Assembly: GCA_963783675.1 (NCBI GenBank) | Contig: CAWAOU010000016.1 | Location: 98,478 to 162,477 of the forward strand | DNA: 64,000 bases | Source of the DNA: an uncultured Gammaproteobacteria bacterium | GTDB taxonomy: Bacteria; Pseudomonadota; Gammaproteobacteria; Competibacterales; JAHEDQ01 | Direction of reading: 5' to 3' | Part shown: one piece after another, positions 56,533 through 57,045 of the stretch | Position numbering within the stretch: the first letter of the stretch is position 1 | Layout of the letters: each line of letters opens with the position of its first letter | The notes under the pieces: model-generated | The model's input: only the letters and a program-made list of their open reading frames with translations | What the model was told of the DNA's origin: nothing | The model's database searches: none | Made by a program: the position numbers and the translations under genes

Positions 56533-57045
56533 TCAATCAACGAGGGCTGCGACGGTATCCATCGGCAGGAATAGCTTCAGCCGTTGGCCGGGCAGGGTGA
56601 TGAAGCCGAATTGCCGATAGAACTTGGCGGCCCGGTCATTCAGGGCATCAACGACCACGGTGTAGACAGCCATTACCTGGCTCGCCTGGGCGATGCGTTG
56701 CAGGGCGTCGGCGAGCTGGATTGCGCCGAGTCCCTTACCCTGGTGAGACTTGTCAACGGCCAGCCGTCCCAGCAGGACCACTGGAACTGGATACCGGGGG
56801 AGCCGACGTCGGAACTCCTCTTGCAGATCAGTGGCATCGAGGCTGCCGGCGCTGAGGCTGTAGTACCCGGTTACCTGCCGCGGCGCATCTGTCGGTGAGG
56901 CGGCGAATACTATGCCCAAGAAACCTGCAATGATTTGTATCATGAGATAGATTGCGGAAAAGATCACTGCATACCCAATAACCCTGCCAAACGCCAAATT
57001 GGCTGGATGGTGCGACTCGCCAGACTCGTCCGAACTATCTGTCAT
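56533..57045 (-). CDS. GNAT acetyltransferase of the TacT/KacT toxin type, with an atypical hydrophobic N-terminus and no antitoxin gene
   Basis: 170-aa ORF. From residue ~55 it reads [14 protein letters not shown]...[30 protein letters not shown]...[12 protein letters not shown], which parallels TacT. Residues 1-50 (..[33 protein letters not shown]) are hydrophobic and AT-rich. Confidence 0.8.

Follow-up and report, generated by a model that had tools for sequence, protein, structure and literature searches.

A chimeric open reading frame beside VIT1 as a probable disarmed remnant of a TacA/TacT toxin-antitoxin module

How can the gene of a tRNA-acetylating toxin persist where its antitoxin is missing? 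This question is raised by a 170-aa open reading frame (ORF) at 56533..57045 on the minus strand of the 64-kb stretch of DNA analysed here (hereafter the window). The ORF resembles GNAT toxins over most of its length, begins with a hydrophobic N-terminus and stands next to a divergently oriented gene. The original prediction, made from the sequence alone, offered two readings of it: either a rearrangement at the 5' side had left a disarmed remnant, or the gene is a membrane-tethered derivative that has taken on a new role. Here, both readings and two further ones are weighed using protein and DNA homology, structural comparison with characterised toxins, codon statistics and the variation found among contigs that carry the same locus.

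The chimera, its junction and the missing antitoxin

The ORF is a chimera in which 45 orphan codons (56911..57045, minus strand) are fused in frame to a TacT-type GNAT toxin, of which codons 43-167 are present. Among 5.8 billion proteins searched, 1836 relatives were found. The best intact ones are 167 aa long, align to no more than 72-79% of the query and are 73-93% identical to it, and the full length of the chimera is covered by two clusters only, P0001 (99%) and P0002 (95%). Residues 46-170 are 93% identical to the intact toxin P0003 and 83-85% identical to many other toxins of 167 aa. Alignment showed that the canonical N-terminus (MELIIAPLGKQH.RKSFDCGE..L.QYL.RYASQDIRRRVNR) is swapped for the 45 orphan residues in the chimera and that the sequence downstream is common to both.

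At the DNA level, homology to five intact loci (L007, L008, L009, L010 and L011) begins at one identical base, window position 56910. The junction therefore lies between codons 45 and 46 (56911/56910), and protein alignment to close intact relatives placed it between the same two codons. The tacAT-derived segment (56441..56910, minus strand) comprises ORF codons 46-170 up to and including the stop, followed by 92 nt of flanking DNA on the 3' side, and blastn aligned it to L007 with 94.1% identity over 473 nt (56910-56441). No informative repeats were found at the junction, and no plasmid match was obtained for 56380-57160 using blastn against PLSDB.

The same junction recurs in at least 14 contigs that stem from several samples and assemblers; all of them share the VIT1/histidine-kinase context and are 98.5-99.9% identical. 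One further protein variant of the chimera was found on 16 contigs. The recurrence of an identical junction in 14 contigs of different sample and assembly origin (MEGAHIT/ENA, JGI, Logan) rules out an assembly artefact. Only one population, of roughly 99% identity, carries the chimera. Based on the 14 concordant contigs, it is therefore real and fixed, but only in this one population. The N-terminus is thus not a widespread one paired with an antitoxin; it was seen in a single population and never next to an antitoxin gene.

In all five intact loci, a toxin gene of 167-169 aa is located 12 nt 3' of a 94-aa PF08681 (TacA1/DUF1778) gene, and the close intact relatives at 93%, 84% and 83% amino acid identity are each encoded directly behind a PF08681 TacA antitoxin. 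This agrees with the arrangement that the original prediction had taken as normal for TacT-type toxins. At the chimera, only 108 nt of intergenic DNA (57046..57153) separate the ORF from its divergent neighbour, and this region contains no antitoxin ORF, as had been noted for the ~100 nt upstream. The neighbour had been named correctly as VIT1 and encodes a VIT1/CCC1-family iron/manganese transporter under purifying selection (57154..57927, plus strand; PF01988, E 4.6e-58). Further, tblastn with three TacA proteins found no TacA-like gene in the 64-kb window (best E = 0.5), and a tblastn search of the same window found no trace of the canonical toxin N-terminus. The antitoxin gene and 42 toxin codons are therefore gone and not displaced within the window.

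Retained and lost parts of the toxin

Using phmmer, the chimera was matched to PDB chains of TacT (5FVJ), AtaT (6GTS, 6AJM), KacT (5ZGN) and ItaT-type toxins and to 7F37, with E values of 2e-19 to 2e-16. These matches cover query residues ~52-166 only, and the first 50 residues remain unaligned. The predicted homology to tRNA-acetylating GNAT toxins is thereby upheld, while its start, placed at about residue 55 in the original prediction, has to be moved to residue 46. The N-terminus is not a normal GNAT beta1-alpha1 region that had been misjudged; it does not align to the family. Four Pfam GNAT models (PF00583, PF13508, PF08445 and PF13673) scored above cut-off within residues 86-153, with Acetyltransf_1 spanning residues 86-148. 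The acetyl-CoA motif A of the family (Q/R-x-x-G-x-G/A) is retained as Q102-G-K-G-L-G107 (56725..56742, minus strand), which aligns to QGxGxG of the TacT and AtaT structures. Also retained is the C-terminal conserved tyrosine of the family, Tyr143 in 'FY' (56617..56619, minus strand), an invariant column in alignments of 13 and 49 sequences that, going by published work on TacT and AtaT, would be the catalytic general acid. Judged by sequence, the C-terminal three-quarters of the chimera are unambiguously derived from a TacT/AtaT-type toxin, with which residues 46-170 share homology, both of these features and, in case of the intact module, the 3' flank.

Two other defining features of the family are absent. 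The complete N-terminal beta1-alpha1(-alpha2) region with its F-x-C-G-E motif is not present, as canonical residues 1-42 are missing, and there is no adjoining upstream DUF1778/RHH antitoxin gene. The chimera is therefore a remnant of a TacT/AtaT family member and not a member. Unlike TacT, AtaT, KacT and ItaT, it lacks beta1, the 'SFDCGE' stretch and the helix alpha1 that contains the aminoacyl pocket and the path of the tRNA, carries a foreign hydrophobic helix in place of this part and has mutations at family-conserved residues.

The intact toxin P0003 could be aligned to AtaT without N-terminal gaps (P0003 residue 11 corresponds to AtaT residue 14), and the lost residues 1-42 are therefore equivalent to AtaT 4-45. 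In the AtaT-tRNA structure, alpha1 enters the groove of the acceptor stem. Here, it and the alpha3-beta4 loop contributed by the partner subunit make up a path along which the tRNA 3' end is led to the catalytic site (F30, H34, R37 and N41), and A26 and L27 of alpha1 contribute to the aminoacyl side-chain pocket (PMC7595197). The L27E exchange alone abolishes AtaT toxicity, and activity requires homodimers (PMC7595197). In our alignment, the equivalents of A26, L27, F30, H34, R37 and N41 all fall in the deleted segment, in line with the earlier statement that the N-terminal segment of such toxins is part of the substrate-binding fold. In a low-confidence AlphaFold2 model of the intact P0003, beta1 spans residues 4-7 and is followed by a helix (24-33) and by beta2 (42-47), which puts the break at the start of beta2. 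For the chimera, AlphaFold2 returned a mean pLDDT of 55, with a helix at residues 16-42 (pLDDT ~50) and values of 29-41 for beta2-beta3; the intact control P0003, modelled from the same shallow, low-diversity alignment, was equally poor (pLDDT 58). Since the lost beta1-alpha1(-alpha2) part provides the aminoacyl pocket and the tRNA 3'-end guide in AtaT, the product should not acetylate aminoacyl-tRNA, and from this comparison we infer that the chimera has lost its toxicity.

These results bear directly on the idea that the chimera is a still-active orphan toxin neutralised by a TacA-type antitoxin from another part of the genome, which we regard as highly improbable. A split VapD/VapX system has been described and orphan toxins are abundant in E. 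coli genomes (PMC10790755); moreover, our antitoxin search covered 64 kb, and the contig is at least 167 kb long. However, the alpha1 region needed for AtaT toxicity is missing, TacA is absent from these 64 kb and damaging variants segregate in the toxin part, as described below.

We consider it likely that the chimera is the disarmed remnant of a decayed TacA/TacT (DUF1778-GNAT) type II module that arose via in-frame deletion fusion. The one-base end of homology and the loss of both TacA and alpha1 support the first of the two readings originally put forward. The ancestor of this population carried a tacA-tacT pair whose DNA was ~94% identical to that of an intact pair from a different metagenome. 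One rearrangement, which is most simply explained as a deletion, then took the whole antitoxin gene together with the first 42 toxin codons and joined tacT codon 43 in frame to 45 unrelated codons beside the divergent VIT1 gene. Loss of the antitoxin would have been survivable only if the toxin was disabled in the same event, and a product unable to acetylate aminoacyl-tRNA would explain why the toxin part is tolerated without antitoxin. The remaining ORF may be expressed as a small membrane-anchored polypeptide, and most likely it would be functionless and drifting. Several observations count against the remnant reading: the ORF is intact, motif A and Tyr143 are kept, the N-terminal part is free of SNPs, its hydrophobicity far exceeds that of chance frames and its codons are coding-like.

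The 45 orphan codons

The N-terminus consists of an acidic tip followed by one strongly hydrophobic helix, just as had been described for the first ~50 residues. A single transmembrane-like helix is predicted for residues 22-49 (56899..56982, minus strand) and would span the fusion point. The Kyte-Doolittle maximum over 19 residues is 2.29 at residues 28-46, and the uncharged stretch extends over 28 residues. Among 734 random stop-free frames taken from the window, a single one is as hydrophobic. The DNA encoding the N-terminus is AT-richer, again as predicted, with codon-position GC values of 0.47/0.40/0.53 compared with 0.74/0.43/0.72 for the toxin part. In a 100-nt interval there, GC drops to 44%, and the segment is the locally most AT-rich stretch. 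The codon-usage log-odds score of the 45 codons is +0.16 per codon, corresponding to the 14th percentile of real in-frame windows. This score is above that of every sense off-frame window and of all windows in four out of five intergenic regions tested, while 21% of antisense stop-free windows reach an equal score.

Searches for a source of these codons returned the chimera itself or nothing. An exhaustive phmmer search of 1.84 billion representatives matched only the chimera's own cluster, although a query of 45 residues is blind to relatives of up to ~50% identity. A word-index search with the 50-aa N-terminal peptide gave no match, a metagenome scan with the N-terminus found two contigs only, both carrying the chimera of the same population, and tblastn against 80 VIT1 loci and the window yielded only noise. 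The pre-fusion state was not seen via VIT1 synteny either. The best matches among GTDB genomes reached at most 59% identity and were taxonomically scattered; with VIT1-linked loci no closer than this, the pre-fusion allele is not visible. The N-terminus had been called 'transplanted' in the original prediction. It is indeed foreign to the intact toxin family, while a transplantation as such is unproven because the searches found no donor gene.

An alternative origin of the N-terminus is that a truncated toxin came to lie beside T-rich non-coding host DNA, with the frame open to an ATG by chance, in which case the locus would be a plain pseudogene whose 170-aa protein is never made. We regard this as possible but somewhat doubtful. 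Consistent with a chance extension are the lack of homologues of the 45 residues in our searches, the AT-richness of the segment and the codon scores of the antisense windows. Further, neither the ATG nor the alternative TTG start (codon 17) is preceded by a Shine-Dalgarno-like motif, and the start assigned by gene callers varies even where the DNA is identical, a 154-aa protein being called from TTG codon 17 in L094. The corresponding 154-aa protein P0127 was rejected as a disrupted allele, given that its DNA is identical and only the start chosen by the gene caller differs. Finally, the 44 codons that precede the ATG in frame (57046-57177, minus strand) are also free of stops. They include no ATG, GTG or TTG, overlap the beginning of VIT1 on the opposite strand and score as non-coding (-0.21).

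Other evidence argues against a chance frame, namely the rarity of equal hydrophobicity among chance frames, the codon score, which no off-frame window on the sense strand and no window in four out of five intergenic regions attains, and the lack of any SNP in 243 nt reported below. Most long ORFs in the window are likewise without a Shine-Dalgarno-like motif, so that its absence at the chimera says little. A consensus scan found one sigma-70-like site where 0.2 were expected; this site, a consensus pattern match only (TTGACT-16-AATCAT; 57154..57181, minus strand), points toward the chimera from inside the first VIT1 codons. The extreme hydrophobicity combined with coding-like codons favours an in-frame fusion with the 5' end of a membrane-protein gene over a chance frame. 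The 45 codons thus probably formed the 5' end of a host gene for a membrane protein that has since been lost, and a chance open frame appears less likely by a moderate margin.

Variation, genomic context and meaning of the remnant

The toxin-derived codons contain 12 SNP sites, half of them nonsynonymous (6) and half synonymous (6), and one haplotype carries a 9-nt in-frame deletion of L92-G93-R94 in the 'VVLLGRLAV' strand beta4. VIT1 (774 nt) shows 5 synonymous and no nonsynonymous SNPs. In the 45 N-terminal codons and the 108-nt intergenic region, no SNP was found in 243 nt across the 14 contigs, and the conservative exchange V27L is the sole N-terminal protein variant seen. Expressed per 100 nt, there are 3.2 SNPs in the toxin part, 3.2-4.3 over the TA-derived segment 56441-56910, 1.0 in 56144-56440, 0.65 in VIT1 and 0 in the 243-nt flank. 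Gene conversion from intact paralogues was rejected as an explanation of this excess, given that the variant alleles depart further from the family consensus. A one-sided Fisher test of 6/6 against 0/5 gave p ~0.075; with these small counts, neither neutrality nor purifying selection is rejected.

Comparison with intact toxins adds to this picture. The dN/dS of the window protein against L007 is 0.35, compared with 0.09-0.20 among intact relatives. When polarised against outgroups, the changes I59T, P75Q, L110Q and A129T were gained in the lineage of the window. In a set of 82 columns that are at least 90% conserved among 47 intact relatives, the window protein departs at 6, including the invariant P75, and P0002 departs at 12, while the intact relatives themselves depart at 2.3 on average and at 6 at most. 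Taken at sequence level, these data point toward relaxed constraint on the toxin part, which nevertheless remains embedded in a chimeric ORF that is unbroken in all 14 contigs.

The surroundings of the chimera also vary. A 3.4-kb segment (52107-55512) shows presence/absence polymorphism, with four contigs (L001, L092, L093 and L097) joining 55513 straight to 52106 at a short CGAAA(A)C microhomology and identity being ~90% beyond this junction. Its absence removes a formyltransferase/enoyl-CoA-hydratase fusion gene, a 279-aa ORF without Pfam match and the cNMP-binding half of a histidine kinase, and leaves a 206-aa HATPase-only kinase ORF. This kinase truncation is a second, neighbouring case of a deletion leaving a 5'-truncated gene. 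On the other side, an rve_3 transposase gene (IS) is located at 60567-61595, 3-5 kb from the toxin remnant, and is adjoined by an RHH_1/ParE (ParDE) toxin-antitoxin pair at ~59902-60388 (minus strand), mapped from L002. As far as gene content can tell, this marks the region as flexible and rich in mobile elements and, together with the kinase truncation, as prone to decay.

Between the histidine-kinase stop codon and the TA flank, ~300 nt of non-coding DNA (56144-56440) contain no terminator-like site and have no homology to other tacAT flanks. Within the 390-nt non-coding stretch 56144-56532, no structured RNA or riboswitch was matched in Rfam even at E values up to 1, and no Rfam match at gathering score was found in the whole window. 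Beyond VIT1, the intergenic region 57928-58070 has 11 SNP sites in 143 nt, and in the methyltransferase gene beside it, 7 SNPs are nonsynonymous and 5 are synonymous. At this place, the longest ORF (58071-58880) encodes 269 aa, compared with a gene of 186 aa called on related contigs. Base composition differs along the window, with GC1 of ~0.72-0.75 and GC3 of ~0.73-0.76 for the genes at 1.5-15 kb and GC3 of 0.54-0.61 for those at 24-26 kb and 52-56 kb, which suggests that the window may be a mosaic of differently sourced DNA.

The second reading of the original prediction can be assessed against this background. Here, the chimera would be a neofunctionalised, membrane-tethered GNAT fragment, with an N-out/C-in signal anchor on the TacT core (beta2 onward, including the acetyl-CoA site), kept for a new role at the inner face of the membrane. 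Such a role could be acetylating another substrate, binding acetyl-CoA or poisoning the dimers of incoming TacT-type toxins. The ORF is intact in the 14 contigs, the fusion is fixed across both kinase haplotypes, and the N-terminal codons and upstream region are invariant. The very hydrophobic helix, with its acidic N-terminal tip and RRRLPR on its C-terminal side, fits a cytoplasmic GNAT part, and the coding-like codon usage, the retention of motif A and Tyr143 and the promoter-like site upstream point the same way. Despite these points, we think this reading unlikely. A GNAT fold without beta1-alpha1-alpha2 misses part of the core sheet and the wall facing the acceptor substrate, the lineage-specific changes P75Q, L110Q, A129T and I59T affect conserved core positions, and three beta4 residues are deleted in one haplotype. 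Further, pN/pS is ~0.4, compared with 0 in VIT1, and only one population has this architecture, which gives no sign of long-term retention.

A more specific form of this idea starts from the requirement of AtaT for homodimers, which makes a dominant-negative fragment conceivable (PMC7595197). In these obligate homodimers, alpha1 of one subunit and alpha3 of its partner jointly form the tRNA path, and the fragment could therefore act in a dominant-negative and antitoxin-independent manner. The membrane-anchored TacT fragment, itself unable to acetylate tRNA, would then pair with intact subunits as an 'anti-addiction' factor against incoming tacAT modules, or have some other membrane-proximal role involving acetyl-CoA; we give this little credence.

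We therefore return to the disarmed remnant, for which two kinds of precedent are relevant. Chimeric genes formed via in-frame deletion fusion and membrane peptides derived from T-rich sequence are general phenomena. The chimera resembles such cases in that two loci contributed to it, one the 5' part including the start codon and the promoter side, the other the 3' part, and in its hydrophobic helix encoded by T-rich DNA, but differs in that its 5' donor was not found in our searches. Orphan toxin ORFs, for their part, are abundant and lineage-specific in bacterial genomes such as those of E. coli (PMC10790755). Like other orphan or degenerate toxin genes from TA decay, the chimera is partnerless, has an IS and a second TA pair nearby in a flexible region, is limited to one lineage and shows signs of relaxed constraint. 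In contrast to these, its break is known to the single nucleotide, and it is an in-frame chimera and not a simple truncation or frameshift.

In conclusion, the chimera most likely represents an ordinary kind of genome decay. For annotation, this means that the gene should be counted neither as an active orphan toxin nor as an ordinary GNAT enzyme. A new question would be opened only if the fragment is expressed and functional. As a small case study of the birth of a chimeric ORF, the locus is distinctive for its single-nucleotide break and the in-frame hydrophobic replacement. Read as a remnant, it would provide a nucleotide-resolved example of how a chromosomal toxin-antitoxin module may be lost safely, with the antitoxin and the substrate-binding part of the toxin gone in one event.
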